Positions 1 through 23,272 are shown, counted from the first letter of the stretch. The stretch is DNA of 37,342 nucleotides from Desulfobacteraceae bacterium (GCA_027032655.1 JALVMZ010000269.1:1-37342), one strand, 5' to 3'. A program made the numbers and translations. Notes: generated from the sequence alone by a model not told the origin.

Positions 1-394
1 CAACAACCAGAACCTCTAACCTGTTTTCCTTGAAACGACCGAATGAGTAAAGGCCGTTCTTTATATCCTCTTTGATGTTTTCTACCATAAGGTTGAAAAA
101 TTCGTCTTCTAATGTTTTTTCTCCGGCCGATACAAGTTCAAGTATGGGGGTATAGAATCTGAACTGATGGAGCTTAATGGCCTCCTCAAAATCCCGGATG
201 CTATCAACTATTACTTTTCCGTTTTCCTCTCTGAAGTTGAGGCTGGACTTGTTGATTATAAGAAGTTCTAATTTTGAAAACATTGGTATAGCTCCATCGT
301 TATAAGAAACAGTTACTCTGAACCTCTTGTCTTCTGCAAAGAGGAGTTTTCCTCTGTAGCTGTCTAAGAGCATATAGATCTCTGTTGTTGGCAT
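1..394 (-). CDS. hypothetical protein, N-terminal part only (runs off the left edge)
   Basis: Minus-strand frame is open from ATG at 394 to the window edge with no stop, so it is absent from the ORF track. AAGGAG lies 6 nt upstream. It begins MPTTEIYMLLDSYRGKLLFAEDKRF and starts 10 nt after the stop of the upstream GGCT-like gene, so it is likely co-transcribed. No family recognised. Confidence 0.55.
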   Translation of the reverse strand, partial: MPTTEIYMLLDSYRGKLLFAEDKRFRVTVSYNDGAIPMFSKLELLIINKSSLNFREENGKVIVDSIRDFEEAIKLHQFRFYTPILELVSAGEKTLEDEFFNLMVENIKEDIKNGLYSFGRFKENRLEVLVV

Positions 395-404
395 GATTTT
401 CTCC

Positions 405-812
405 TTAGCGTAGTATCTCTTTAACCCAAGGTTTCCATCCTTTCTTTGTCCACCAATGTGGAACCTTTTTTTCAGGGAGCTCCCAACTGAAAAGTCCATT
501 TGGTTTTTCCATAAAGTAGAGTATGGCCGGTATTGTTTCCTTATCTGTTCTAAAAGAAAAAGAGTCCCTTTTGTAGAAAGTAGGAACTCCTTCCAGCCTG
601 TCCAGCTGCATGAGCGTTCTACCGGATACGCTGTATAGCTCAACCACTATAGGCACTCCGTTTTTATGGGGAACAACGGTAGGGAAGCTTGAATGTCCCA
701 GGAGAAAACTTCCAAGGGACACTCCTTTTCCCAAAAATTCAGAGTCTGTGAGGTAGTAGTGGTTTCCGTGTCCTTGTTTTAATGTTCCGTAAACGGCGAC
801 GATGTTCTCCAT
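405..812 (-). CDS. gamma-glutamyl cyclotransferase-like (AIG2/GGACT family) protein
   Basis: 135-aa ORF. N-terminal VAVYGTLKQGHGNHYYL and central VELYSVSGRTLMQLDRLEGVPTFYKR match the YGTL...LD.lEg..Y.R pattern of the GGACT/AIG2-like fold. Confidence 0.65.
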   Translation of the reverse strand: MENIVAVYGTLKQGHGNHYYLTDSEFLGKGVSLGSFLLGHSSFPTVVPHKNGVPIVVELYSVSGRTLMQLDRLEGVPTFYKRDSFSFRTDKETIPAILYFMEKPNGLFSWELPEKKVPHWWTKKGWKPWVKEILR

Positions 813-921
813 TGTTCTCCTCCTGTTCTCTAATATATTTCTGTAAAACAGGAATGCAAGCTTTATTTTTTCTTAGATTTGATTTAATTTCATTTAATAA
901 ATACTGTTCCAGGGGTGTATT

Positions 922-1644
922 ATGGTGGAGCTCCCGAAAAATGCTATGAGGGCCTTAAAGCCTGAACAGAGGGAACTTATAAAGGAGTACAAGAGTTGGC
1001 TTCTCAGAAACGGCTATAAAGAGGGAAGCGTTCAAACTTTGGGTAGGAAGGCGGCCAGATACCTGTATCTTTGCGAACAGGAAGGGCTGGATCCAGCTGA
1101 TGAAGTTTCCCTTCTTAAGGTTCGGAAGATAAACCACGACTTGGCCGTTAGAGCGAAAAAGTTTGTTGAATTCCTGCAGGAACGAAAGCGGATGAAGGAA
1201 GAGTTTTCCGGCAAGGAGAAGGTTCCTGCTCAGGCTGGACCTGTAGAGGAAATGGAGCAGATGCAAAGTTGGGTAACTGAAGTGATTAGAAGGCTTGATT
1301 CACTTGAGGTTCTCCTGAAGGATTCTTTATCTGTTGTATCCGGTAGAAGGACTAAAGGTTTTAACTTTGATATGCTTGTCGGAAAGCCCGTGACAGTTAG
1401 AACGGTAGATAATAAGTTATACACAGGAGAGCTCCTCGGATATGACGAGGACATGATATATGTTCTCTCTGTTGAGAACAGAACAGAGGAAAAACGTTTC
1501 CACTCAGGAGGCAAAAGAGCTCCTTATGTTAAAAGGGTTCCGCAGGAGCCTCAATCTTTCGTTTACTCTATCAGTAGGCAGGTTATTGAGTCACTGGAAA
1601 CTCCTGCCAGCTTCTTTGATTTTGGTTCTGAGCCTGAACGCTAA
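922..1644 (+). CDS. hypothetical protein; N-terminus resembles an integrase SAM-like helical domain, C-terminus resembles an Sm/LSm fold
   Basis: 240-aa ORF. The C-terminal segment GKPVTVRTVDNKLYTGELLGYDEDMIYVLSVE ... SFVYSISRQVIESL has an Sm1/Sm2-like pattern. The domain calls are pattern recognition only. Confidence 0.6.
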   Translation: MVELPKNAMRALKPEQRELIKEYKSWLLRNGYKEGSVQTLGRKAARYLYLCEQEGLDPADEVSLLKVRKINHDLAVRAKKFVEFLQERKRMKEEFSGKEKVPAQAGPVEEMEQMQSWVTEVIRRLDSLEVLLKDSLSVVSGRRTKGFNFDMLVGKPVTVRTVDNKLYTGELLGYDEDMIYVLSVENRTEEKRFHSGGKRAPYVKRVPQEPQSFVYSISRQVIESLETPASFFDFGSEPER

Positions 1645-2098
1645 CATTCAAGCTGCTTCTACCGAGGAGATTCTTGTTGATGCCGTTTATAAGCTTATTC
1701 AGCGTGTTAATCTGCTTGAAGAGAAATTGCAGGAACTCCAGTCCCGGTGTCAGTGTTTAGGCGTACAGAATACAAGGAATACAGGGAATACAAAAGATAC
1801 AGGACGATTACGGCCAGAACGCTTTAGAGTGATTATAGGGACCTTCAGGAGCAGGAGGGGGGCGGAGAGGTTTGCTCAGAAATACAGGAATAAAATTCGT
1901 GCATGCATAAATATTAGAAAGACAACCTGCCGAAACTGGAAGTGTTTCGTTGTTTACACTGATGTTCCTACAGAGGAATACAGAAAAATTAAAGCTTTAA
2001 TTCCTGATGCCTTTATCTCAAGGACTACATTACAGTTACACACAGGAGCTGAACAGGGATTCCCTACAGCTACACAGACTACAGGTATACAGGACTGA
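1460..2098 (+). CDS. SPOR-like (peptidoglycan-binding) domain protein; start uncertain
   Basis: The ORF overlaps the previous gene by 185 nt, so the real start may be ATG 1526 or later. No ATG/GTG/TTG occurs between 1646 and about 1727. The C-terminal FRVIIGTFRSRRGAERFAQKYRNKI ... NWKCFVVYTDVPTEEYRKIKALIPDAFI fits the duplicated beta-alpha-beta-beta SPOR pattern. Confidence 0.45.
   Translation: MFSLLRTEQRKNVSTQEAKELLMLKGFRRSLNLSFTLSVGRLLSHWKLLPASLILVLSLNANIQAASTEEILVDAVYKLIQRVNLLEEKLQELQSRCQCLGVQNTRNTGNTKDTGRLRPERFRVIIGTFRSRRGAERFAQKYRNKIRACINIRKTTCRNWKCFVVYTDVPTEEYRKIKALIPDAFISRTTLQLHTGAEQGFPTATQTTGIQD
1763..1804 (+). repeat. imperfect 9-bp tandem repeat (GAATACA core, period 9, 4-5 units), in frame inside the SPOR-like ORF
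   Basis: GAATACA occurs at 1768, 1777 and 1786, and GATACA at 1796. The repeat translates to NTR-NTG-NTK-DTG. Confidence 0.7.
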
Positions 2099-2101
2099 TT
2101 A

Positions 2102-2130
2102 CAGAACGTTTGTTCTGAATTTCTGTTCTG
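2102..2130 (+). promoter_or_regulatory. inverted repeat CAGAAC-GTTT-GTTCTG plus a third GTTCTG copy, just upstream of the dsbC-like gene
   Basis: A perfect 6-4-6 palindrome lies at 2102-2117, and GTTCTG occurs again at 2125-2130. It sits between the stop at 2098 and the GTG start at 2140 (RBS GGAGGA). It could be an operator or a weak terminator/attenuator. Confidence 0.35.
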
Positions 2131-2139
2131 GAGGACGTT

Positions 2140-3339
2140 GTGAGAAAGTCTTTGGGATTGGTCGCTCTTCTGGTTATGTTTTCTTCCGTTTCTTTGGCCG
2201 GCAGTGGGGACTCTTCTCAGGTTAAGCAAGTAGAAAGTCTCCTCAGGAAGAAACTTCCGAATTTGCGTTTTGACAGGGTTGAACCTTCTCCTATTAAAGG
2301 ACTCTACGAAATCCATGCAGGTAGCAACATTATCTACGTTGACCCTCAAGTGGAACACCTTGTTTTTGGAGCTATATACAACTTACAGGGAAAAAACCTT
2401 ACAGATGAGAAGAAAAAGCAGCTTTTCAGGCAGCTTGCTGACGAGATGGCCAGAACGTTTCCTGTCCGTTCTGCAGTTCATATAGTTGGAAGTAAGAAGC
2501 CTACGGTCTTTCTGGTTGCGGATCCAGACTGTCCCTACAGCAGGGAGCTCCTGAAGTTTCTGCTAAGCAGGAATGTTGATTTCTTCGTTATCTTCGCCGA
2601 TATGCGCAGGAATTCCTATCCACATATTCTCTATATCCTATCCAACAAGGACAGAAGGAAGGCTATTGAAGAAGTTGTTAGCGGTAAGCTTGACGATGAG
2701 GCTGATGTTCAGAAGGTGCTAAAGAGTGCATCTGAGGCAAACAAAGAGGAGACTAAACGTTTGCTCGGGAAGTGGAACCAGTGGATGCGGAAGTACAGCA
2801 TCAGGGGAGTTCCCTTTGCAGTTATTCCCAGAAATCAGCAGGTTGTTCAAGGGTTCCGAAGAGAAGTGTTTGAGTCCCTTTATCCGTTTGACATCAGCAA
2901 ACTAAATCTTTCGGATGCGCCGGTTATAGTCGGTAGTGGGTCGGGTAAGAAAATAGTGGTCGTTACAGACCCTACCTGTCCGTTTTGTAAGAGGGCCTGT
3001 AACGCTTTAAGACATCTGGCAAAAGAAGGAAAGGCTACCTTCTACGTTTACCTGTTCCCTATTCACGGTGATTTCTCTATGAAATACATAGCGGACATAA
3101 TGAATTCTCCTAAGGGAGAGAGAGCTCTTCTCCTTGAAAGATTTTTTGAGGGAAAAGCCTCTCCTTCTGGGGAGCCTATGACTCCTGAGGCTGAAAAGGA
3201 ATTTCAGAAGCAACTACAGGTTATCAATAAGCTTGGTGTAACAGGAACTCCAACTTTCTTCTCTTGGCCTGACGGGAAAAAGATAGTGGGAGCTAACGTT
3301 AGGGCTGTGGAAAACCTTGTTAAGGGAGGCAATAAATGA
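2140..3339 (+). CDS. periplasmic thiol:disulfide interchange protein, DsbC/TrbB-like, with two thioredoxin-like modules
   Basis: GTG start with a GGAGGA RBS and signal peptide MRKSLGLVALLVMFSSVSLAG. A DsbC-type N-terminal segment is present (KGLYEIHAGSNIIYVD). The first module has CPYS (2530-2541) and the second has CPFC (2977-2988) plus GVTGTPTFF. Confidence 0.7.
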   Translation: MRKSLGLVALLVMFSSVSLAGSGDSSQVKQVESLLRKKLPNLRFDRVEPSPIKGLYEIHAGSNIIYVDPQVEHLVFGAIYNLQGKNLTDEKKKQLFRQLADEMARTFPVRSAVHIVGSKKPTVFLVADPDCPYSRELLKFLLSRNVDFFVIFADMRRNSYPHILYILSNKDRRKAIEEVVSGKLDDEADVQKVLKSASEANKEETKRLLGKWNQWMRKYSIRGVPFAVIPRNQQVVQGFRREVFESLYPFDISKLNLSDAPVIVGSGSGKKIVVVTDPTCPFCKRACNALRHLAKEGKATFYVYLFPIHGDFSMKYIADIMNSPKGERALLLERFFEGKASPSGEPMTPEAEKEFQKQLQVINKLGVTGTPTFFSWPDGKKIVGANVRAVENLVKGGNK

Positions 3340-3533
3340 GTAAGAAAGAGGAACATACTTTGTTTCTTTCCTCTGCCCGTAAGGGAATGTCTTTTCATTC
3401 TTGGAATTCCTTGCCTGTGTGGGTTAAAGCTCCTCTAAAACCTATGAGTTCTTATGTCCTTTTTGCCCCGCAATATAGGACATTAGAGACACATACTGAA
3501 ATGTCTAATCAGAAGACTGTGGAGGAGGAATAG
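3336..3533 (+). CDS. hypothetical small protein (65 aa), weak call
   Basis: ATGA overlap with the stop of the dsbC-like gene. No signal peptide and no recognisable motif. It could be non-coding spacer. Confidence 0.25.
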   Translation: MSKKEEHTLFLSSARKGMSFHSWNSLPVWVKAPLKPMSSYVLFAPQYRTLETHTEMSNQKTVEEE

Positions 3534-3535
3534 CT

Positions 3536-3901
3536 ATGAAAAAGTGTCTCGCACTGCTTACTGTCTGCCTGGCTTTTGGCCTTCAGAGTGCAAAGGCTGA
3601 ATGTAATGGTGAAGTCGTGGAAAATTGCGGCAAAGGGATTAATGAGGAAGTATGTAAACAGAAAGGGAGCCTTTACTATCTTTGCCTGATGGGAAAGATA
3701 GCTCCTTCTTTGTCAGGGGCGTTTGTGGACTGGCTCGTCAAGCACAAGGTGGATGTTTGTAAGGAAAACGTTGACCAGATTAGCTCTTTCTTTTCCAAAG
3801 CAGTCAAGGACGAGGACTTCATAGTAGCTTTCCTGCTCCGTGCTAAGCCTGGCATCTCACGGGAAAAAGCGCTTGAACTGGCCAGGAGGATGGCTGAGTA
3901 G
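3536..3901 (+). CDS. small secreted Cys-containing protein of unknown function
   Basis: 121-aa ORF with a GGAGGA RBS and signal peptide MKKCLALLTVCLAFGLQSAKA. It lies in the tra operon directly upstream of traV. Confidence 0.6.
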   Translation: MKKCLALLTVCLAFGLQSAKAECNGEVVENCGKGINEEVCKQKGSLYYLCLMGKIAPSLSGAFVDWLVKHKVDVCKENVDQISSFFSKAVKDEDFIVAFLLRAKPGISREKALELARRMAE

Positions 3902-3914
3902 AGAGGGGGTGGCT

Positions 3915-4286
3915 GTGAAAAAACTCTTACCAATTGCAGTTCTGTTTTTTTCAAGCTGTTCTATCTTCTCTCCCTATTCCTCTGAGTTTTCCTGCCCCGG
4001 TTATCATCCCGGAACGTGTGCTTCCATACCTGACGTTTATCGGATGTATAAAAGGGGAGCTTTTTCAGATACTCAGGAGTCTGAGGGAACCCAGGAGAGC
4101 TCTGCTTATAGACCCTTAAGGTGCAGCTATAAAACTGTCTGTAGCAGTTGTGGAGATCCTCTTATAGGTGAGAGGAGGTGTTGCAGGCAGGAAAAATATT
4201 GCGTTCCTGATAGCGTTTCCAAACACATTGACTATAGAGCAGAAGCTGTAAAGGACAACGCTAATGAAGAGACGGTGGTATGGTAG
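3915..4286 (+). CDS. traV: F-type T4SS outer-membrane lipoprotein TraV
   Basis: GTG start at 3915 follows GAGGGGG. The lipobox is in VKKLLPIAVLFFSSC. SSEFSCPGYHPGTCASIPDVY matches the TraV pattern (..EFeC......tC...), and the position immediately before traC fits the F gene order. Confidence 0.6.
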   Translation: MKKLLPIAVLFFSSCSIFSPYSSEFSCPGYHPGTCASIPDVYRMYKRGAFSDTQESEGTQESSAYRPLRCSYKTVCSSCGDPLIGERRCCRQEKYCVPDSVSKHIDYRAEAVKDNANEETVVW

Positions 4287-6937
4287 GTTTAGGTGGAAAA
4301 CGTAAGAGAAAGCACAGGAAGATAGCGGGTTTTATTGCTACGCCGTGGAAACAACTTGTTGAGCTTTATGAGAGCATGCCTCTTTCTCAGTTTCTTCCTT
4401 ACGTTGCCTACGATTTTCAAAGGGAGCTCTACATACTGGCTGACGGTAGGGCAGCTGTCTGCTACGAGGTCCCTCCGCTTATCGTGGCCGGTAACGACTT
4501 CCTAAACGGTTGTCGCTCTCTGCTTTCTGAGGTTGAAGATGGAACAATAGTTCAGTTTACGATGTACGCCTCTCCTAACATCTATCCCTTTATCAACAGA
4601 TGGCAGAAGGTTGAACATGAGAATGAGGCTATAACGGAAGTTTTTAAGAGAAGGGCCAAGTTCTATGAAGAATACATTCGCAAGCCTCATCCGTTTACTG
4701 GTGTGCCTTTTAGGGATTTTCGCCTCTTTATCTCAATTATCTTTCCGCCTCAGAAAGTTACCAAGATAAAGAACTTTATTGACTGGCTTAAAGCCTGGAG
4801 CGGTATAGGTAAGCTTGAAGAAGAGGGAGTTGACGATTTTGAAAAGTATCTTGACCGCTGCCATGACCAGGCTGTCAGCTTTAGGGGAACTATTGAGTCT
4901 ATGGGCTTTATCAGTAAGGTGCAGAATACGTTGCCTCCAGACTTTTTCCTGGCCACTCTCCGAGAGATTTTCAATCCGTCTCACGAAATCGTTGAGAGAG
5001 CCCCCTACGACCCGGAAAGGGAAATTAGAGAGCAGATGATATTTGCCGACAACGCCATAGTCGTGGAAGATCCTGAGTTCATAAAGATAGATGGGAAGTA
5101 TCTTGCTTCATGGACTGCTAAGAGCTTTCCTTCTGGATCCTTTCATATATCCCGAATGCTTGAGGTCATGGGGGCAATCCTCCGCCGGGATAAAGCTAAC
5201 CAGATTAAGTATCCCTTTGCCATCAGTACCACTATTTACAAACTTCCAGAGGTAGAAGAGGCCAAGATACTGGCCAAGATATATAGGTATAAGAGCACTT
5301 ATGCTGAAGAGGCTATCCAGAAGTCCGTTAAGATCAGGGACCAGGTCAGAGAGCTTGAAATCTACGAGACTATCCGGGCCAGAAATAAAGCAGCTGCAAG
5401 GCTCGTTAAGATTCTGGTGTCAGGCTTTTTCTACGTTGATGCCAGAGATAAGGGAGAGGCCAGAAGGGAAATACAGAACACTTTTAGGACCTTGAATAAG
5501 CTGTGGAGCTCCGCCGGATTTGAGCTCCAGATAGAAAAGTTTAAAACGATTCCTACCTTTATCTATTCCCTTCCTATGGCTCCTATCAAAGAGACTATGG
5601 ACTTCCTCAACAGGGCCAAGACGGTTATTATCTCGTCGGTTCCTAATCTCGTCGTGGTCCAGTCTGACTGGAAAGGAACCGGTTGGTACAAGAGACCTCA
5701 GTATCCGGGATTTGTTTTCTTCTCCCGAAGGGGTCAGGTTCAGCTCATATCCCTGTGGGACTCAGAAACTAACTATAACCTCTTTATAGCTGCTCAATCA
5801 GGAGCCGGTAAGTCGTTTCTTATGAACGAATTCATTACAAACTTTCTCGGGAGAGGAGGACTTGTTTACGGCATAGACGTTGGAAGGTCCTACATGCGGG
5901 CCGTGAAGGTTTTTGACGGCCAGATGATAGTTTTTGACAGCAAGCTTTGTATCAACCCTTTTACCAACAGTGTTCTTGGAAGGCTTGACAAAATAGCTCA
6001 GGAGCTCGGTGAGGACGAGGCCAGAAAGGAAGCTACTGCTGAGCTTGAGCAGCTCGTAAGGCTCTTTGCTACCATGTGCGGACTCCCTGCAAGCGGATAT
6101 ACAGACTATAAGGGAGTTCTGGAGCAGGCTATTCGCATAGCTTGGGAGAGGGAAGGACCAGATGCTTCCGTAAGGCTTGTAAGGGATGTTCTCCGAGAGT
6201 TTATGAAGGATGAAACGAAAATAGAAATGCGTCCTCAGATAGCAAGAATGATAGAGGCTCTTTACCCTTACGCTGAGGGCCGTTTTGCTCATTTCTATAA
6301 CGGCAGGGCTAACGTTGACATCAATAAGCCTTTCGTTGTTCTGGAACTTGAGGAAGTTAACCAGTACGAGTCAATGAAGGAAGTTGTTCTTATGTCCATT
6401 ATGATGATTCTCTCTCAGAAGATCTACTTGGGAGACAGGTCTATTCCGAAATTGTTCTTTGTTGATGAGGCCTGGGACCTGCTGAGGGGGGAACATACAG
6501 CTCGCTTTATAGAGACAGGTTACCGTAGGTTCCGTAAATACAATACTGTTGCAGCAACTATTACTCAATCCATTCTTGACTTTTTTATGGAGGAGAACAA
6601 AGCAGTAGGCCAAGCCATTATTTCAAACTCCGAGTTTATGTTCCTTCTAAACCAAAGGGAATCTGACCTCCAAAGGGCCTACAAAGAGAACATCCTGACG
6701 ATAGATGATTTTGCCAAGGAGATGCTTCGGACAGTTATGACCGAGAAGGGAAAGTATTCAGAGATATTCGTCAAGAACTCTGTTACTTGGGGAGTTATGA
6801 GATTTATGGTTGACCGTTTTAGTTACTATCTCTACACCACGGATCCTAAGGAGACTGCTGAAATAGACAAGCTCGTTGAATCAGGAATGAGCTTGAAGGA
6901 GGCCATTGAATTCATGATAGAGAAGGAGAAAGCCTGA
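4280..6937 (+). CDS. traC: F-type T4SS ATPase TraC (VirB4 family)
   Basis: 885 aa, a size typical of TraC. Walker A is AAQSGAGKSFLMNEF and Walker B is KLFFVDEAWDLL. The start overlaps traV. Confidence 0.9.
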   Translation: MVGLGGKRKRKHRKIAGFIATPWKQLVELYESMPLSQFLPYVAYDFQRELYILADGRAAVCYEVPPLIVAGNDFLNGCRSLLSEVEDGTIVQFTMYASPNIYPFINRWQKVEHENEAITEVFKRRAKFYEEYIRKPHPFTGVPFRDFRLFISIIFPPQKVTKIKNFIDWLKAWSGIGKLEEEGVDDFEKYLDRCHDQAVSFRGTIESMGFISKVQNTLPPDFFLATLREIFNPSHEIVERAPYDPEREIREQMIFADNAIVVEDPEFIKIDGKYLASWTAKSFPSGSFHISRMLEVMGAILRRDKANQIKYPFAISTTIYKLPEVEEAKILAKIYRYKSTYAEEAIQKSVKIRDQVRELEIYETIRARNKAAARLVKILVSGFFYVDARDKGEARREIQNTFRTLNKLWSSAGFELQIEKFKTIPTFIYSLPMAPIKETMDFLNRAKTVIISSVPNLVVVQSDWKGTGWYKRPQYPGFVFFSRRGQVQLISLWDSETNYNLFIAAQSGAGKSFLMNEFITNFLGRGGLVYGIDVGRSYMRAVKVFDGQMIVFDSKLCINPFTNSVLGRLDKIAQELGEDEARKEATAELEQLVRLFATMCGLPASGYTDYKGVLEQAIRIAWEREGPDASVRLVRDVLREFMKDETKIEMRPQIARMIEALYPYAEGRFAHFYNGRANVDINKPFVVLELEEVNQYESMKEVVLMSIMMILSQKIYLGDRSIPKLFFVDEAWDLLRGEHTARFIETGYRRFRKYNTVAATITQSILDFFMEENKAVGQAIISNSEFMFLLNQRESDLQRAYKENILTIDDFAKEMLRTVMTEKGKYSEIFVKNSVTWGVMRFMVDRFSYYLYTTDPKETAEIDKLVESGMSLKEAIEFMIEKEKA

Positions 6938-7395
6938 TGGAGGAGCAGAAGAAAGGTCTATTTGACTGGCTGTTCGTCGGAACTCCGTTTCTCCTTACAG
7001 TGGCAGTTTCCCTTCTGATATCGGGAACAATGTTCTACTTCTTGGTTCCTCAGCCTCCAAGAGTTATTTACTCGTTTGATGCCGAGAAGTTCAGGAAGGA
7101 CCTGACTGCAAGGGCTGCTGTAGAGGAAGCTTCGGTTGCAGTGGTAAGCAACATAACATCGGAGCTCCGCCTTCTTCTTGATGAGTACGCTACTCGTGGT
7201 CAGACTCTTGTTGTGAACAGGAGAGCTTTCCTCGCTAACGGACTAAGTAACGTCCGGATTGTAGACATTACCGGTGAACTGGAGAAAAGGCTCTTTTCAA
7301 AGTACTTCTCTTCTGGGAACCCGGACAGGAGGTTAAAAGAGGAACTATTCATACAGGGAGAGAGGAAGGTTGGCGGAAACGCTGAGAGCTTTTAG
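6937..7395 (+). CDS. trbI: TrbI-like single-pass membrane protein of the F-type T4SS
   Basis: ATGA-type junction with the traC stop. It has one TM helix (LFVGTPFLLTVAVSLLISGTMFYFLV), then VIYSFDAEKF ... VRIVDITGELEKRL, which resembles F TrbI. The position after traC matches the F order. Confidence 0.45.
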   Translation: MEEQKKGLFDWLFVGTPFLLTVAVSLLISGTMFYFLVPQPPRVIYSFDAEKFRKDLTARAAVEEASVAVVSNITSELRLLLDEYATRGQTLVVNRRAFLANGLSNVRIVDITGELEKRLFSKYFSSGNPDRRLKEELFIQGERKVGGNAESF

Positions 7396-7939
7396 AGCTT
7401 GGTTAATGGAGCTCCCTCCCTGGAAGAGGGCCCTGTTTTTACCGCTGTCTGTTGGCTTGTTTACTTACCTATTCTGGCAAGGAGCTATCGGTATTTTTAA
7501 TCACTTTTTCATTCTGGTTCATACTAGGACCAACTCAGATTACTTCACCTCGTTTGTGTGTACACGAAGAACATATCCAGTGAGTGAGCTGAATGTAGGG
7601 GATTACGTTTACTTTCCCTACCGTGGAGAGAGGCAGTATCCCCAGTATGGCGTTGCTAATGGGGAGCTCTTGGTGAAGATGGTTGCAGCTTTGCCTGGTA
7701 TGAAAGTTAAAGTAGATGACTACCATGTTTACATAAACGGCCAGATAAAAGGAGCTGTTCTACATACAGATAGGAAAGGTAATCCTATGGATTACTTTCA
7801 CTACGATGGCCCTGTTCCAAGCGGAAAAGTCTTTGTCATGGCTCCGCATCCAAGGTCGTTTGACAGTCGCTACTGGGGTTTTGTTGACGAATCTTGGGGA
7901 TTGCGTAAGTGCTGGCCATTACCATTCTCTGATAGATAG
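7370..7939 (+). CDS. S26-family signal peptidase-like protein (conjugative TraF/TrhP-type peptidase)
   Basis: The Lys box LLVKMVAALPGMKV and C-terminal FVMAPHPRSFDSRYWGFV are typical S26 motifs. The Ser box is not clearly recognisable (TNSDYFTSF). The start is TTG 7370; ATG 7406 is an alternative. Confidence 0.6.
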   Translation: MAETLRAFRAWLMELPPWKRALFLPLSVGLFTYLFWQGAIGIFNHFFILVHTRTNSDYFTSFVCTRRTYPVSELNVGDYVYFPYRGERQYPQYGVANGELLVKMVAALPGMKVKVDDYHVYINGQIKGAVLHTDRKGNPMDYFHYDGPVPSGKVFVMAPHPRSFDSRYWGFVDESWGLRKCWPLPFSDR

Positions 7940-9441
7940 CCTGTAAAGAATAGTTTCTTAACAAACAATGCCAAATATGCAGGAGACGAAAAAGAGGTTC
8001 CTTTTAGTGTTGTTTTGGCTCCATTATCAAAGATAACTTTGGCTATGCCGTCTATATTCACTTCTCCCGGCTGGAATCTTTTAGCATCTCCTACGGTGTA
8101 GAGGTTTTCTAATAGGAACCCCAAAGCTTCAGTGACTCCAAGGCTGGTTATGGTGTGTTCTTCTTTGTTTCCTGCTGACTTAACCAGAATAATTCCTTTG
8201 TTGTTAAGTTCTATAAACTTTTCTATTCTCTGATCTGCTACAGGGGAAAAGTAGTTCCTTCCAAAAGACATATTAATGAACACAGGTGTGTTTGGATTTT
8301 CTTTTTCTATACGGGTAAGGATTTCAACTAATGGATCTTTAAAGGGATCTAATAGATATGCGTTCTTAGTTTCAGATGTTAGGTTTGGGAAATTAATTTT
8401 TTTTATGGTTACTAAATCTTTTTCAAGCTCATCATGTAAGATGCTTTCAATTATCTTTTCTACGATGTCTCCGTGGTAGGTTATTGTAGGGATGGGAATA
8501 ATTCCGTAAATGTATGCTACGGTTGGATTAGCTCCATGAAAGCTGTCTATTACATATATGATTGGTTTCTTTCCTGACTTAAGTCGTTTTTGAAAGGCTG
8601 TTCTAGCGACTTCTTGATCTCTGATTTTGAAGTCATGTTTAATTTTGCTTAGGTATTCGTAAGCTTCTGATGCAGAAACCTCGTAACTTTGGAATGGATA
8701 TTTATCTTTGGCCTGAAGGGCAACAGGATTGTAAGCATTTACTACGTTTACTGATAATTTTGTATATGTAAGCAGTAACATTACAAGGTATAAAAGAGCT
8801 GTTAAAGCGAGGGTTCTAAGGGAGAAACTGACGTTTGGTAGGGGCTTCTGTACCAATAAAGAGTGAATTTCCTTTTGTTTTTGTTCTTTATTCTTAATTA
8901 TTAGAACCGTGATGAGGCTTAGACCTAAGAGTACTGCTATGCTGATTAGTAATAAAGGATTATGGATAATGTAAGTTAGTATTAGAGAGATAAATATTAG
9001 TAGAGGGATAATGAATTTCAGGGCGTTTACAATCTGTTTATCTTTAAAAATGATACTTTCCTCTGTTTTGGGGCAGAATTTCCGATAGAAAATGGGAAAA
9101 TGGGAAAGTTTAAGGATAATGTCTTTCTTTGTTTTCAAAAACTTACAAAGTGAAGGTTTGAAGAGTTTATAGAGTAAATGTGCTGATATCAGCGATGTAG
9201 AGATGCTAAAGGCCAGGATTAATTGAAGGATTGCTACAATGGCTAGAAGTGTTGTGAAATTATCAACCGGGTTTCGCATAGTTCCAATTAATGCTTTGGG
9301 ATTGTTTTCCCTTGTCAGGGTTAGTAGCTTGGTAAGTGAGATGTATTGGAACACTATGAATAATGCTACTATAGCAATAATTGGTAAAATCGAAAGCATA
9401 GCAGGGTGTTCGGAGAGTAGTTGCTTAATCTTCCTTTTCAA
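7870..9441 (-). CDS. polytopic membrane protein with a C-terminal S8 (subtilisin-like) serine protease domain
   Basis: 523 aa, with about 5 TM helices in the first ~230 aa. S8 motifs occur in canonical order: YVIDSF (Asp), TYHGDIVEKII (His), INMSFG, KSAGNKEE and GTSFSSPAYLA (Ser). The last 70 nt overlap the convergent S26 gene. Confidence 0.7.
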   Translation of the reverse strand: MKRKIKQLLSEHPAMLSILPIIAIVALFIVFQYISLTKLLTLTRENNPKALIGTMRNPVDNFTTLLAIVAILQLILAFSISTSLISAHLLYKLFKPSLCKFLKTKKDIILKLSHFPIFYRKFCPKTEESIIFKDKQIVNALKFIIPLLIFISLILTYIIHNPLLLISIAVLLGLSLITVLIIKNKEQKQKEIHSLLVQKPLPNVSFSLRTLALTALLYLVMLLLTYTKLSVNVVNAYNPVALQAKDKYPFQSYEVSASEAYEYLSKIKHDFKIRDQEVARTAFQKRLKSGKKPIIYVIDSFHGANPTVAYIYGIIPIPTITYHGDIVEKIIESILHDELEKDLVTIKKINFPNLTSETKNAYLLDPFKDPLVEILTRIEKENPNTPVFINMSFGRNYFSPVADQRIEKFIELNNKGIILVKSAGNKEEHTITSLGVTEALGFLLENLYTVGDAKRFQPGEVNIDGIAKVIFDNGAKTTLKGTSFSSPAYLALFVKKLFFTGYLSENGNGQHLRNPQDSSTKPQ

Positions 9442-9752
9442 TTTCTCCCTCCTAGTTGTAATTTGAATACAGATCTGACTGTTTTCTTTCTTACCTTATC
9501 AAGTTCTTCTCCAAGCTCGTTTTCTAAGAACCTTGCCTCTTTGCCGTTAACTTGAAGGTAATCTAACGGATTGTATCCCTTTGCCTTTAATAGCTTAACA
9601 AAGGCTTTGACATCCCGCGAAGTTCTCTCTTGATAAGTCCAGCCTATTTTCTTGCCTCTGTATTCAATCGTTCCACTGATTAGCTGTTTTAACTGCTCCT
9701 GTATCATCTGGGTTTCTGTTTGGATTTTGCTATATCTGTCTAATAGTTCCAT
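9438..9752 (-). CDS. hypothetical 104-aa protein (coiled-coil N-terminus)
   Basis: The ORF sits between the Cas4-like gene and the S8 gene, and its stop overlaps the S8 start by 4 nt. No family recognised. Confidence 0.55.
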   Translation of the reverse strand: MELLDRYSKIQTETQMIQEQLKQLISGTIEYRGKKIGWTYQERTSRDVKAFVKLLKAKGYNPLDYLQVNGKEARFLENELGEELDKVRKKTVRSVFKLQLGGRN

Positions 9753-9773
9753 TATGAGTTCTGCGTTCTCGTG

Positions 9774-10520
9774 TTAAAGGGTGGTGTTGGTGCTTTCTGA
9801 GCCGTTGCAAAATCCGTGCTGACGGTAGATGCAGTATTGGCATTCCCAGTTGGCCCGGGGACGAGGGTCATTTCTGAACATTCTGATTATCTCCTCAAGT
9901 TCTTCTCGGGAGATAGATTCTGTAGTCGGGAGAACGACTATGCTTTTACCCATTTTGTAGCGTGTTCTAAGGGTTGTCTTGATGACAAGGTAATGCTCTA
10001 TTTCTTTATCGGGATACTGCCATTCAAGTAAGGCTCTCTGTATTTTAGCTTGTAGTGTGTACTTGTAGTTAATGCTTATTCTCCTACTATTTGGTTGGAG
10101 AATTATCAGTTCCTCTGGACGACCAGAAGTTTCGTTGTCAAATGATAAGACCGTATGTTTAAGTTCCAGTCCCACTATTTTATTGCTGTTATACTGGATA
10201 AAGCAGTCTAAATGTCCGTCAATGGAGAAAGGCTCACCGTCAACTGTAAAGTCGTGGCTGAGAACTTTCTCTTCCTCAAACCTGTTGCCGAATATTTTCC
10301 TGAGGACTTCCTTTACTGTTTTCTCAAACAAGAAACCGTCGTCTATGGCAATGTTTCTAACCTCTAAGTCTGGATGTTGACGGCGGAGTTGGGCTTTCTT
10401 GGGACAGCTTATGATTTCGGTTATTCCGTAGGCTCCATCACGGTAAGATATTTCCCTTCCCTCTCTAACGTGAGCAGATAGTTCTGAGAGAATTCTCTCA
10501 AACTCTTGGAGAAATTCCAT
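9774..10520 (-). CDS. PD-(D/E)XK nuclease of the Cas4/RecB-like type with a four-Cys cluster
   Basis: 248 aa. An N-terminal Cys lies in ISCPKKAQL. The nuclease core is IDGHLDC ... GLELKHT (D...ExK). The C-terminal CQYCIYRQHGFC provides three more Cys, as in Fe-S Cas4/AddB nuclease domains. Confidence 0.6.
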   Translation of the reverse strand: MEFLQEFERILSELSAHVREGREISYRDGAYGITEIISCPKKAQLRRQHPDLEVRNIAIDDGFLFEKTVKEVLRKIFGNRFEEEKVLSHDFTVDGEPFSIDGHLDCFIQYNSNKIVGLELKHTVLSFDNETSGRPEELIILQPNSRRISINYKYTLQAKIQRALLEWQYPDKEIEHYLVIKTTLRTRYKMGKSIVVLPTTESISREELEEIIRMFRNDPRPRANWECQYCIYRQHGFCNGSESTNTTL

Positions 10521-10631
10521 GACTCCCTCCTTGGATATGGCTTAAGTAGTAATATAATCCTGTAAAAAAGGAATATCAATGTTGTAATGTTGTAATTAAT
10601 ATAATGAACCATATGGATATATGGGGTAAAG

Positions 10632-11354
10632 ATGTTTGATTACCTAATCACCGGTTTATCAACGGCCATATCTGTTTATGCCACGATGAAATTTTCCTCT
10701 TACTATCGTGTTAGGGAACCTGGAAAAGCTCGTGAGAAGTATATGGTGGTAGAAAAGCTATCTCATCATGCAAGGAACAAAGTGGATGACATTACGAGGA
10801 TTGTAATCGTTAAAAGTAGTGTTAAGAATGCACTCGGATTTATGGATATAGAAGCGAGTTACAAAAATAATGACCAAGTTATTGTTAAAAGGTATGCTTT
10901 CATTCATACGTTTACTCATGTGTGGTTCGCCCCAGGAAAGGTGATTTTGAAGAAAGAACAAACTTGGACTGAGAAAGTAGAAAGTAATTATTTTAAGAGT
11001 TACTACATATCTTGTAAAAAAAATCTCATGTTGCCTGCAGATTTATTATCTAAGAGTTGGATGAAGAAAATCAGGAAAGTGTCGAAAGAATTCCTAACTG
11101 TTCAATGTACTTTCAGGTATCCTAAGACCTATACTGGTCCGAGATATAGAGAAAGAATTATTGTGTTTGCTAAAGGAGTGGGTATAGTATATGCTAAAGT
11201 AATCTACTCCGATGGTGATATGGATGTATACATACTTAGAGATTTTAAGGTTAGGGAGAATGCACTCTGGTTTCCTATACTTGATGTAGGTAATTGGTGG
11301 ATATATGACATAGAATATTCAAAGCCTCCCAGTTCTGTAAATATTCAAGAGTAA
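10632..11354 (+). CDS. hypothetical protein with an N-terminal TM anchor, directly upstream of the SIR2 gene
   Basis: 240-aa ORF with N-terminal MFDYLITGLSTAISVYATMKF. A 16-nt gap separates it from the SIR2 start. A+T-rich codon usage. No family recognised. Confidence 0.6.
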   Translation: MFDYLITGLSTAISVYATMKFSSYYRVREPGKAREKYMVVEKLSHHARNKVDDITRIVIVKSSVKNALGFMDIEASYKNNDQVIVKRYAFIHTFTHVWFAPGKVILKKEQTWTEKVESNYFKSYYISCKKNLMLPADLLSKSWMKKIRKVSKEFLTVQCTFRYPKTYTGPRYRERIIVFAKGVGIVYAKVIYSDGDMDVYILRDFKVRENALWFPILDVGNWWIYDIEYSKPPSSVNIQE

Positions 11355-11370
11355 ACTTGGGGGGATAAAA

Positions 11371-13103
11371 GTGGCTTCTGCTGTAATAAGATTATTGAAT
11401 AATTTGCTTAAGAGTGATGGGCTAAGGTTTTGTGAAGGAAATACGGTAATAGTAGTGGGAGCTGGGGTGTCAATTCCGAGTGGATTACCTTCTGGTTTTT
11501 CTATCTTGAGTGATTTGCTTCATTGGTTGGGTTTAAAATTGCTTTTAGAATTTTATGTTCAATTGGGAGAAGGAGTGATAAAACCAATATTTGGATTAAT
11601 TCCTGATTTCATTCGCTATCCGAGATTGGAAGTTCTATTCTTTGCAATGAAGAGTTTTTTAAGAAATCTGGAAATTATTCGATTTATAGAAAGATTTTGG
11701 AATCTCTGTTTCTTCAAGGTGAGCCTAATTATTTCCATTATCTTATGGCAGATTTTATAAGAAGAGGAGGGGTAGTTGTAACATCTAACTTTGATTTGTT
11801 GATAGAAAATGCTTATAAAGAACTTTATGGTAGAGAACTATTGAAGATTGCATTTCCTATAGGCGAGGAGGATATTGTTAGTCGTTCAAATTTGGATAGT
11901 CTATTAATTAAGTATCATGGATGCGTTTCTTCGATTGATAAGATTGGCATAGATGTGGAGAATCTTGAATTTGAAGGCTTTAAAGGGAGGGAAGAAGTTC
12001 TATTTAATAAAATTTTTCAAGATAAGGAGAATTTAGTTTTTATAGGTTCATCATTATCAGATTCGTTGGATTTTCTTCCTTCTGTTGGTAGATTGAAGCA
12101 GAGTTTCAGAGTAGTCGTTTTTGATTACGATCCTACTTGTGAAAGTAGTTATAGTGTGTCAAAAGCAAGTGTTACTAATTTGCGTAATTCTTCTAAGTTT
12201 TTTTCACTTTATTGGTTTTTAGGGGAGAAAATAGATGATGCTGTTGTAATAGTGAAAGACAAAGATAATTCTGTATTTGCTAAGTTTATAAATAATCGTA
12301 AGGCGCTTGCTGAAAAAACGAAAAATAGGAGTTATTTTCCAAATTTAGATTCTCGGACAATGGAAGTATTAAGACTTTATGTTTTGAAAGTAATGGGACT
12401 TTTAACTCTTGTTGGAGAGAAAGATATTAGGAAATTGGAAGGTATTAAAGATTCAAACTTAGATGCTATTGTGGATGAAATAATATCTTATTGGGAGAAT
12501 ATCGTGGGGAATTACAAATATAATCTTTCGAGGCGCAAGAATAGATGTGATTATTTAGATTCCTTAACGGAGGTTGTCTTTTATTCGGATGCTAATATAA
12601 TGGAAAGAATTTTGGGATATTTTTTAGGTTTGTTTCTGAGTGTTAAGTGCTACAAGAGTTGGAAAAAAAGGAAGAGGGATATTAGGCTTTTTAGGAGTTG
12701 GTTTCATTTTATGTTGAGAAATTTCTATATTTTTCCCTTTCTTGCTGCGATCATAAGAATTGATAAATTTATACGATTTCAAAAGGATTTATCTCTGCAT
12801 AAGAAGGATATCTATTTGTATAGATTTTCTCTCAAGGAAGAAGTGAGGTATTTGCTCAAGAGAAATAGATTTGAAGAAGCTTACAAGAAATGGAAAGAAG
12901 CTTTTATTTTGTCTGTGGATACAGATTATTTTATAGAAGCTTCGAATTTGCTTAGGCTATGGTATATGGAAACAAAGGATAGGAATATCAGGAGAGAAGC
13001 GGTATATATGCCATTTTTGTATAGGGATTCGCTTAATTTGGGAAAAATTTTAAGATTCCTTTCTAAGGAAAGTGTGCCTATTTGGTTAAGGTATGTTATT
13101 TAG
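11371..13103 (+). CDS. SIR2-family (SIR2_2/ThsA-like NADase-type) protein, about 577 aa, split into two ORFs by a -1 frameshift
   Basis: Frame 1 (11371-11760) carries VVGAGVSIPSGLPSG. Frame 3 (open from 11607, to 13103) carries GEPNYFHYLMADFIRRGGVVVTSNFDLLIENAY. One protein needs a -1 shift, most plausibly at the T6 run at 11655-11660. The C-terminal ~300 aa look helical and are not obviously SLOG. Confidence 0.7.
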
Positions 13104-13104
13104 G

Positions 13105-13168
13105 GGGGGTGTTCACTCAAGTATGTAAAGATTTTTAACCTTTAACTTAAAGGATAGTGGACACTCCC
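13105..13168. terminator. nested hairpin between the convergent SIR2 and TIR genes (candidate bidirectional terminator)
   Basis: The outer stem pairs GGGGGTGTTCAC (13105-13116) with GTGGACACTCCC (13157-13168): 12 bp including 2 G-T wobbles. An inner perfect palindrome CCTTTAA-C-TTAAAGG lies at 13139-13153. Confidence 0.4.
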
Positions 13169-13583
13169 TATAAAGAACAACTTCTGATAGCTCTTATAAT
13201 GCTTTGTGTGTTCCATCCTACTAATTCACAGGCTACATTTTGAATAAGTTGGGGTGTTCTTTGATGTCCCCAAGGTTTCACTCCTACTATTGGTTTTTCG
13301 TATTTTAAAGCGATTTCTATTTCTTTTTGTATCCAGTACCTGTGGGAGACGTATATACCTGAGATTACTATTACTACGTGAACGGGTTTTATCTGATCTT
13401 CAAGTTCTTTCAAAAGTTTTTTCGGTCAGTTTCATCTTCAGGGTCTAAAACAGGATCGTGTTGTGGTACAGAGTAGTTTCTCCACTTGAAATAGGGAGCA
13501 TTATTTAGCATTTCAACGAGGCGGTAATAGTCTTCGCTATATCTCCAAGCATGGCTAATGAAAATGTTGTATGTTTTGTTCAT
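13168..13583 (-). CDS. TIR-like protein of the DUF1863/ThsB type, about 138 aa, split by a -1 frameshift
   Basis: The N-terminal piece runs from ATG 13583 (RBS GGAGG): MNKTYNIFISHAWRYSEDYY...ETDRKNF, ending at stop 13410-13412. The C-terminal piece (13413-13168) reads LKELEDQIKPVHVVIVISGIYVSHRYWIQKEIEIA...VGWNT. The two pieces join at the A6 run at 13417-13422. Confidence 0.7.
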
Positions 13584-14095
13584 CTGATACCTCCGATGGA
13601 GTTTAAGTTATCTGTTTGAGTACTTGTTCTTTGAATATACATTCTCCACTCGGTATTTTCTTCCGATATTAGACTTTCAACTCGTTCTACTAATTTTTGA
13701 AATGCTTCTTCATTGCTTAATCCTTTATATGGGCCTGCTTTAGATAAATATAAGAAAAGCTCATGTTTTAAAGTCTCTGCTGTTGTTCTATACTCCAACC
13801 AATTTTCTTGGTATTTATTTAAGGTTTGGATGCCGCTAATTATTGCCAGTATGATACTTAATAAGACCGTTATGTACTTTGCAGAACTCCAAGTAGTAGA
13901 AAAAGTAGAGGATAAGACGATTAAGCCAGTTACAATATATTCTGTAGTTTTAAGGCGTTTAAACCATTTTTGATTTGATACTGACTTTTCATCATACCAG
14001 TTAAATTGGTCAATTAGTCTGTTTTCAATATACTATCTTTCTTTTTCAGAAAGCCTATTAAATTCTTCAAATTTCTGGAGCTTCTCTATATCCAT
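13580..14095 (-). pseudogene. DUF4231/SLATT-type 2-TM protein with an in-frame TAG at codon 21
   Basis: ATG at 14095 is followed by 20 codons, TAG (14033-14035), then YIENRLIDQFNWYDEKSVSNQKWFKRLKTTEYIVTGLIVLSSTF..ITVLLSIILAIISGI..NWLEYRTTAETLKHELFLY. No ATG/GTG/TTG occurs between the TAG and 13798, which lies after both TM helices. The stop TGA overlaps the TIR ATG (ATGA). Confidence 0.65.
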
Positions 14096-22975: not shown

Positions 22976-23272
22976 TTGAAAAGTAATAGGGAAAAACGGG
23001 TAGGAAGACGGATAAGGCCTGAAAGCCTTAAGTTAGAGGAGTTTCTCAAAGAGGAGATAAAGAAGGAATTTGCCAAGCACAACGTTATCCGTATTTTGTG
23101 CGACGAGAGGGGCTGGTCTCGTTCTGACTATGACCGAATCTTTAAGTGGCTTGACAACTATAACAGACGGGTGGAGATAGGGCTTCTCATTGACGCCTTG
23201 TGTGCAGTTGGAGCCGATTGGAAGGAAATATTCAAGAGGGCCCTGGAGAGGAGAGGAGGCGACTGCAAGTGA
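22976..23272 (+). CDS. hypothetical 98-aa protein
   Basis: TTG start follows AGGAGAAAGAG. The sequence is K/E/R-rich. No family recognised. Confidence 0.45.
   Translation: MKSNREKRVGRRIRPESLKLEEFLKEEIKKEFAKHNVIRILCDERGWSRSDYDRIFKWLDNYNRRVEIGLLIDALCAVGADWKEIFKRALERRGGDCK

Follow-up and report, generated by a model that had tools for sequence, protein, structure and literature searches.

The contig JALVMZ010000269.1 (contig C269; 37,342 nucleotides, nt) of a Desulfobacteraceae bacterium (GCA_027032655.1), which is the entire stretch of DNA analysed here and is called the window below, carries a gene for a Cas4-family iron-sulfur nuclease followed by a gene for a membrane-anchored subtilase. 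This nuclease-protease pair belongs to the conserved backbone of an F-type conjugative element of thermophiles from hydrothermal vents, similar to plasmid pTHEAM01 of Thermovibrio ammonificans HB-1, and it sits at the edge of a slot for defence cargo. The gene pair is real, rare and conserved. Its members are of known kinds, a mobile-element Cas4 nuclease and an S8 protease, and it is the polymorphism signature that is unusual. Cas4-like nucleases of plasmids and phages are common; here one of them is persistently linked to a subtilase from a very rare, hitherto undescribed clade that is anchored in the membrane, and the protease gene behaves like a balanced polymorphism in an otherwise conserved transfer backbone, a pattern otherwise found at exclusion and immunity loci. 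We tentatively favour, with a probability of about 45%, the reading that the nuclease is the element's enzyme for processing DNA ends or single-stranded DNA, and that the protease is a conflict or recognition factor on the envelope side, most plausibly an exclusion-like one.

The module consists of two genes, and the nuclease gene is split in the window

An initial annotation of the window had described a three-gene operon on the minus strand, with a nuclease at 9774-10520, a separate coiled-coil protein of 104 amino acids (aa) at 9438-9752 and a 523-aa protease whose start overlaps the stop of the small protein. The reading frames are right (248 aa for the nuclease; 7870-9441 with a TTG start for the protease), and the division into three genes is not. 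The open reading frame (ORF) of 104 aa lies in frame with the nuclease, 7 codons past a TAA at 9774-9776. Loci in other sequences are designated below by numbers beginning with L. The features of this part of the module are as follows.

9774..10520, minus strand: Cas4-family [4Fe-4S] PD-(D/E)XK nuclease core, 248 aa, ending at a premature TAA (profile, fold, invariant residues)
9774..9776, minus strand: in-frame TAA splitting the nuclease (read-through translation; DNA alignment with L001 and L002; genome search match interrupted by one TAA)
9438..9773, minus strand: C-terminal domain cut off from the nuclease, made up of 7 linker codons and the 104-aa ORF (fusion in all homologs found)
10523..10530, minus strand: Shine-Dalgarno sequence GGAGGGAG with a 2-nt spacer to the nuclease ATG at 10520 (direct reading)
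9445..9452, minus strand: Shine-Dalgarno sequence GGAGGGAG preceding the TTG start of the protease (direct reading)
10551..10579, minus strand: promoter-like TTGATA-17-TATATT upstream of the nuclease gene (consensus scan, 10/12 matches; a pattern match only)

When 9438-10520 was translated in one frame, the result was a single frame with one stop (...NTTL*HENAELIMELLD...), and L001 has GAA (Glu) at the position of this TAA. The nuclease and the supposed 104-aa protein are one ORF in L001 (360 aa) and L002 (354 aa). All of the 18 database homologs are likewise single proteins, of 351-407 aa, and fused nucleases of 348-370 aa were also found in L020, L023, L025, pTHEAM01, a Thermotogaceae metagenome-assembled genome (MAG) and an Aquifex MAG. 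No Shine-Dalgarno sequence precedes the 104-aa ATG. Because the ORF is in frame, is fused in all homologs and has no Shine-Dalgarno sequence of its own, the "104-aa coiled-coil protein" is the nuclease's own C-terminal domain, cut off by the stop. In the AlphaFold2 model of the intact L001 orthologue, this domain comprises a helix (253-280), a beta-hairpin, three helices and a final strand, with a predicted local distance difference test score (pLDDT) of ~72-89 for residues 253-353. Family searches with the domain (Pfam, NCBIfam, PDB sequences and PHROG) returned coiled-coil noise and weak matches to the phage exonuclease family phrog_69 only, and PADLOC gave no match for the 104-aa ORF. A Gam/Gp157-like identity was considered for the domain and dropped as unsupported.

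The module thus reads as two genes, nuclease then protease, which are translationally coupled. As the initial annotation had noticed, the stop codon of the 104-aa ORF overlaps the protease start as TTGA (9438-9441). The same 4-nt overlap between the nuclease and protease genes is present in L001, and gaps of 3-21 nt separate the two genes in L002, L011, L020, L023 and L025. The promoter-like site upstream of the nuclease falls within a block conserved with L001, L023 and L025 (blastn, up to 10574-10587).

The C-terminal domain is probably not made from the window's copy. The in-frame TAA and a downstream fragment that has no Shine-Dalgarno sequence would suit a decaying remnant, in which the nuclease is a pseudogene and this copy is now functionless, whatever the intact pairs do. 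On the other hand, the Cas4 core is complete in the shortened 248-aa product, with all catalytic and cluster residues (four Cys and D/E/K), the protease ORF is intact with all of its catalytic residues, and the TAA could represent a minority variant or an error in the consensus, the MAG having 7.7% contamination. We regard decay of the locus as very unlikely.

The nuclease is a mobile-element relative of Cas4

The initial annotation had called the first protein a Cas4-like Fe-S nuclease with a 1+3 arrangement of cysteines, and both points are upheld. The cysteines are C39 and then C227, C230 and C238. Together with D105, E119, K121 and Q157, which make up the D, ExK and Q motifs of PD-(D/E)XK (RecB-type) nucleases, they are invariant in 20 sequences. 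A profile of this 20-member family matched Cas4 SSO0001 (PDB 4ic1) with E=1.7e-9; the stretches around D105, E119 and K121 as well as the CxxC region align to 4ic1, and binding of a [4Fe-4S] cluster through the four cysteines is predicted. The model of the L001 orthologue reached a pLDDT of 86.3, and its top Foldseek match was again 4ic1 (E=4e-12, TM score 0.70-0.73), followed by AdnAB, Exo5, ACE1 and RecE-type nucleases. Cas4 matches were also obtained from PADLOC, TIGR00372 and PHROG (phrog_1706 and phrog_69). The single-sequence score against TIGR00372 was 17.5 bits, under the 65-bit equivalog cut-off, so that the nuclease is a relative of the Cas4 family and not an equivalog.

We found no Cas1 gene and no CRISPR repeat array in the window (both Cas1 genes that the MAG has sit on other contigs), which places the nuclease in the mobile-element, non-CRISPR group of Cas4 proteins. 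Such solo Cas4 proteins outside CRISPR are known from phages and one conjugative-plasmid clade (Hudaiberdiev et al. 2017, PMC5704561). The nuclease shares with Cas4 SSO0001 and solo Cas4 the PD-(D/E)XK core (D, ExK, Q), the 1+3 Cys [4Fe-4S] site and the location on a mobile element outside CRISPR. It differs from them in the extra C-terminal domain of ~100 aa, which is kept in all relatives of the family, in the absence of cas1, cas2 or an array nearby, and in having a membrane protease as its partner.

The second group of relatives is the Cas4-like, RecB-like and DUF2800 exonucleases of phages. The best viral structure matches (BFVD) are two-domain phage exonucleases of 300-400 aa, phrog_69 and phrog_1706 were matched by 13 and 5 of the 20 family members, and distant members occur in phage-like contigs, including a 167-kb IMG/VR genome. 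Unlike in these phage enzymes, no annealing protein adjoins the nuclease in the window, and the nuclease clade of conjugative elements has gained the protease partner; the sequence similarity between the two groups is weak (E 1e-4 to 1e-7). In the 167-kb contig (L006/L030, IMGVR_UViG_3300026488_000013), the 389-aa nuclease homolog lies near a gene with an RNA polymerase Rpb2_6 domain and a dUTPase-like gene, and its neighbours are mostly without a Pfam match.

The partner is a divergent, membrane-anchored subtilase

The second gene encodes a protein with the following parts.

8761..9441, minus strand: polytopic membrane anchor, residues 1-227, 5 predicted transmembrane (TM) helices, N-terminus inside, hypervariable (hydropathy, K+R bias, AlphaFold2 helices of low confidence)
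7873..8760, minus strand: divergent S8 subtilase domain, residues 228-523, predicted periplasmic (invariant D/H/N/S; hhalign)
8545-8547, 8473-8475, 8167-8169 and 7993-7995, minus strand: catalytic residues D299 and H323, oxyanion N425, and S483, respectively (family alignment)

The call of a polytopic-membrane S8 protease, made initially from motifs, is confirmed, with the catalytic residues complete: VID299, H323G, INMSFG, SAGN425 and GTS483FSSP are all present. D299, H323, N390-x-S-x-G, A-G-N425 and G-T-S483-F-x-x-P are invariant in 10 members of the protease family, down to 25% identity, which gives the Asp-His-Ser order of S8 proteases with the oxyanion Asn. The window protease scored 14.9 bits against Pfam PF00082, below the cut-off of 21.8, and two relatives exceeded this cut-off (P0023 with 21.9 bits and P0024 with 29.0 bits). 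When the family profile was aligned by hhalign with bona fide S8 proteins, which were the next matches after the family and themselves match PF00082 with E 1e-24 to 1e-29, the probability was 97.5% (E=5.6e-12) and the Asp, His and Asn motifs were matched. The AlphaFold2 model of the full-length protease, built from a 4-sequence alignment, was poor (pLDDT 44), and its Foldseek matches in the PDB (KaiC, flavodoxin-like) were uninformative; the assignment of the fold therefore rests on sequence and profiles.

The family is rare. An exhaustive profile search found 9 representatives at E<=1e-10 among 1.84 billion, and a word search found 3 clusters among 5.8 billion sequences; no relatives were found in the GTDB representative genomes (pattern search) or in IMG/VR. 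Locus searches for the protease used a 4-sequence alignment as the query.

Hydropathy and the positive-inside rule predict about 5 TM helices, in agreement with the initial annotation (3 in L002). The window protease has 22 K+R residues on the inside against 4 on the outside. Across the family, the number of TM helices is odd in 9 of 11 members, with 7-24 K+R inside against 1-5 outside. The topology prediction that had been proposed initially thus puts the protease domain in the periplasm, where it would face away from the cytoplasmic Fe-S nuclease across the membrane. After the last TM helix (8730-8760, residues 228-239), most family members carry an AYNP motif (VNAYNP, DRAYNP, TDAYNP, NSWNP). 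Speculatively, this motif could be a processing site at which the protease domain is freed, either by the adjacent S26 peptidase or by self-cleavage. No I9 propeptide was recognisable in the protease.

The protease has the Asp-His-(Asn)-Ser order and the xIDxF, HG, NxSxG, AGN and GTSFxxP motifs of subtilases (S8, PF00082). The mycosin MycP of type VII secretion systems is a membrane-anchored subtilase with a single C-terminal helix. By analogy, the window protease resembles MycP in being membrane-tethered beside secretion-system genes; it differs from MycP and other subtilases in being very divergent and compact, with an N-terminal hypervariable anchor of 3-5 TM helices.

The pair is kept together in the backbone of related conjugative elements

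The window contains F-type transfer genes (DsbC-like, TraV-like, TraC, an S26 TraF-type peptidase, TraH and TraN) and a topoisomerase gene. The transfer genes flank a stretch of lower GC content with SIR2, integrase, TnpB and other genes. The backbone gene next to the pair is the following.

7370..7939, plus strand: S26 (TraF-type) signal peptidase, flanking backbone gene (Pfam PF10502, E=1.8e-19)

This gene is convergent with the protease gene and overlaps it by 70 nt, and it also neighbours the pair in L001, L002, L023 and L025. The transfer block at 365-7933 has 97% nt identity between the window and L023 (blastn), and the synteny of the type IV secretion system genes is kept across related elements (MPF_F, pTHEAM01-like) while the nearby cargo varies. 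The initial annotation had the operon open the A+T-rich cargo. Instead, the nuclease gene and its promoter region are 84-91% nt identical to L001, L023 and L025. Since this conservation reaches ~10574-10587 and the content beyond it differs between elements, the pair is the edge of the backbone and not cargo.

The nuclease and protease genes are adjacent, in this order, in seven sequence-distinct elements (the window, L001, L002, L011, L020, L023 and L025), with junctions of -4 to +21 nt. In this count L002 also stands for L003-5, L011 for L010 and L012, and L023 for L024. All seven come from metagenome or sequencing-run assemblies, at least L011 from a hydrothermal-vent metagenome. The pair occurs in three contexts: it is convergent with the S26 gene in the window, L001, L023 and L025; it is inverted, and thereby collinear with S26, in L002; and in L011 and L020 it has Topo/AAA genes on one side and SSB/HU genes on the other. 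Because the gene order is kept through the inversion in L002 and the relocation in L011 and L020, the pair has moved as a unit. No inverted repeats that would account for the inversion in L002 were found flanking the pair.

The sole replicon of a cultured organism found with both families is pTHEAM01 (NC_014917.1). Its protease (WP_013524937, identical to P0028) and nuclease (WP_013524980) are ~26-36% identical to those of the window. The plasmid shares with window-type elements the MPF_F type and the genes for TraC, TraU, TraK, Topo, DUF5131, DUF2997 and integrase. It differs in that the two genes of the pair are 32 kb apart. The pTHEAM01 protease gene is downstream of the TraK and VirB10 genes. 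The nuclease homolog is on the same strand as ssb, a gene for a Rad52/Rad22-family annealing protein and two AAA ATPase genes, and this block (L027:238-8566, pTHEAM01 67996-76324) is possibly a Red-like module for recombination on the conjugative plasmid of a thermophile. Solo nuclease homologs were found in the 167-kb IMG/VR phage, other phage-like contigs, a Thermotogaceae mobile element and an Aquifex plasmid-like contig, and no nuclease homolog turned up in 40 relatives of the MAG. The co-occurrence that the initial annotation had expected across genomes hence holds for the nuclease and the protease in seven elements; it does not hold for a trio, as there are two genes, and the pairing is not obligatory. 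The recombination context that this annotation had named as evidence against itself does appear, in that nuclease homologs without the protease occur in replication or recombination contexts of phages and mobile elements, and the pairing still stands in the seven elements.

These contexts bear on the explanation that two unrelated housekeeping functions share one transcript, namely a Red-like exonuclease for recombination or DNA processing and a protease that matures or trims proteins of the type IV secretion system, the pilus or the envelope, much like the S26 TraF peptidase next to it. The arrangement in pTHEAM01 is what such an explanation would lead one to expect, with the nuclease beside ssb and the Rad52/Rad22-family gene and the protease elsewhere among transfer genes. 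SSB and HU also adjoin the pair in L011 and L020, the protease adjoins the S26 peptidase in 5 elements, and the nuclease homologs of phages, with the PHROG and BFVD matches to phage exonucleases, stand in contexts of nucleotide metabolism or replication. Two observations on gene content and order argue against it: in L002, L011 and L020 the two genes moved together, and a search of the window, an incomplete element, gave no homolog of SSB or Rad52. Further evidence against it comes from the divergence of the protease.

The protease gene is exchanged between old alleles

Between the window and L023, the nuclease gene (9456-10574) is 91% identical in nt sequence, whereas the intervening protease gene, lying between this gene and the transfer block, has no nt similarity detectable by blastn. 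In the same element pairs, the nucleases are 93-96% identical in aa sequence and the proteases 31-72%. Sliding windows showed a trough of identity over the membrane anchor, which in comparison with L001 is unalignable or 30-57% nt identical, against 78-93% for the flanks. The synonymous divergence (dS) between L023 and L025 was 0.59 for the nuclease, 0.38 for S26 and 0.50 for a 184-aa gene, compared with 1.5-1.8 for the protease. For the window and L001, the protease dS rose from 0.60 in the catalytic part to 1.46 in the anchor. In close pairs, the nuclease had a ratio of nonsynonymous to synonymous divergence (dN/dS) of 0.04-0.07; that of the protease was 0.14-0.26.

Since the synonymous divergence is ~3 times that of the flanks, the protease variants are old alleles that have been exchanged and not merely forms of a fast-evolving protein. 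The pattern points to the protease gene, mainly its anchor, being a long-lived polymorphism swapped by recombination. This is hard to reconcile with a housekeeping role: if the protease matured one fixed substrate, it should not be swapped for alleles of 31-54% identity where the tra genes are 90-97% identical, nor would one expect its dS to be three times that of the flanks. We consider the explanation by two housekeeping functions somewhat unlikely.

The 184-aa gene, whose product has a single TM helix at its N-terminus, is located between the type-B protease gene and the S26 gene (L023:5532-6086, L025:8913-9467). It is 93% identical between L023 and L025, whose adjoining proteases are only 54% identical. 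It had no family match and is absent from the window.

Possible roles of the nuclease and the protease

In the reading that we favour, the nuclease would be a cytoplasmic enzyme acting on DNA ends or single-stranded DNA, either in recombination or in the processing of transferred or invading DNA. The protease would sit in the inner membrane through its 5 TM helices, with the N-terminus inside, and expose an active-looking S8 domain to the periplasm, and the element would keep the two genes together and co-express them. By cleaving a periplasmic or incoming protein, the protease might bring about the exclusion of incoming related elements or of phages that target the pilus or the envelope. The two products probably do not form a tight complex, because they are predicted to work in different compartments and the nuclease barely changes while the cytoplasmic loops of the protease are replaced. 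A role in recognition or conflict at the cell envelope is suggested by the long-lived polymorphism of the protease, above all of its anchor, which is exchanged by recombination.

Entry exclusion is the process by which an inner-membrane protein of the recipient blocks a cognate donor, with a specificity matched to the TraG of the donor. The polymorphism pattern and the predicted location of the window protease are compatible with such a role; the contigs offer no TraG gene for comparison. TraS of F-like elements and Eex of SXT/R391 are entry-exclusion proteins without an enzymatic domain. Like them, though as a pattern analogy only, the window protease has a small polytopic inner-membrane module in the transfer backbone that is polymorphic between near-identical elements and exists as discrete old alleles; unlike them, it has an enzymatic domain. 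An exclusion-like role appears most plausible because TraS and Eex show this pattern, in which a conserved transfer backbone contains a polytopic inner-membrane module that is polymorphic. We found no description in the literature of a subtilase-based exclusion system or of a Cas4-subtilase defence pair. If the protease does mediate exclusion or envelope defence, this would be a new enzymatic mechanism controlling DNA entry, and as the cultured host T. ammonificans HB-1 carries both families, the question is testable.

Several points weigh against the favoured reading. The window's nuclease copy is truncated and may be decaying, and the structure model of the protease failed. In pTHEAM01, the distance of 32 kb means that coupling is not obligatory, both proteins are annotated as hypothetical, and the T. 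ammonificans genome paper called most of the plasmid genes ORFans. All of the cases of adjacency are in related elements, and shared descent inflates the count of seven. Finally, the mean dN/dS of the protease is below 1, without a direct sign of positive selection, and a poorly constrained anchor together with recombination could yield a similar picture of divergence.

The pair could alternatively be an integrated two-component defence against phages or plasmids, in which the protease would sense or process a signal at the envelope and the Cas4-type nuclease would, as the effector in the cytoplasm, degrade invading DNA. The logic of such a system would resemble, by analogy, the combination of a membrane sensor with a nuclease in Zorya and Kiwa. 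It would fit the tight translational coupling, the gene order kept in the 7 elements through inversion and relocation, the allele diversity, which is typical for conflict genes, and the surroundings of the pair. The slot upstream of the nuclease promoter, which the pair borders, holds a SIR2/TIR/SLATT island in the window (10632-14095), CD-NTase_C and Cap15-like (CBASS-type) genes in L001 (L001:5198-6811), and SLATT and ThsB_TIR, N6 methyltransferase, SNase and HNH_5 genes in L025 (L025:471-6153). The evidence against an integrated system lies in the proteins themselves and in their distribution. Nucleases that are 93-96% identical beside unalignable protease loops and TM segments argue against a specific interface. 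Moreover, the nuclease family functions in phages and other mobile elements where the protease is missing, pTHEAM01 carries the two genes unlinked, and the pair is backbone and not variable cargo.

Nor does the pair resemble a catalogued system. PADLOC gave no family match for the protease at E<=0.1, and hence none to an IetS-like model, in line with the initial view that the combination corresponds to no described defence module. The contrast drawn initially with IetAS, which consists of the ATPase IetA and the S8 protease IetS, also holds. Both are two-gene modules with an S8-type protease on or near defence islands. The window protease is, however, membrane-embedded with a predicted periplasmic domain, its partner is a Cas4-type nuclease and not an ATPase, and the pair is not a member of the IetAS group. 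Taken together, integrated defence seems to us unlikely. A protease-armed form of exclusion, in which the hypervariable anchor would serve as a specificity module like TraS or Eex and recognise an incoming mating-apparatus or phage protein of a certain type, the periplasmic subtilase would cleave it and the co-expressed Cas4-type nuclease would destroy DNA that enters nonetheless, would form a two-layer barrier, at the envelope and on DNA, in the backbone of thermophile conjugative plasmids; we hold this version to be distinctly unlikely.

Cargo slot and host of the contig

L001, L023 and L025 differ in the cargo that they carry upstream of the nuclease. Close to the slot, a tyrosine recombinase gene is found in the window, L001 and L002; the latter two also have a DUF5131 gene there. 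This suggests that the slot is a cargo hotspot served by a recombinase.

The contig belongs to a MAG of 2.94 Mb (660 contigs). The closest cultured relative of the contig is an Aquificota plasmid, and the order-level relatives of the MAG are mostly larger (up to 5.4 Mb) than T. ammonificans, which has a 1.68-Mb chromosome. Owing to this relationship, the mismatch in genome size and the contamination of the MAG given above, the binning-based assignment of a mobile contig to its host may be unreliable. A small ORF at 22991-23242, ~12 kb from the pair in the window, is 51% identical to a 95-aa protein encoded just upstream of the L020 nuclease.

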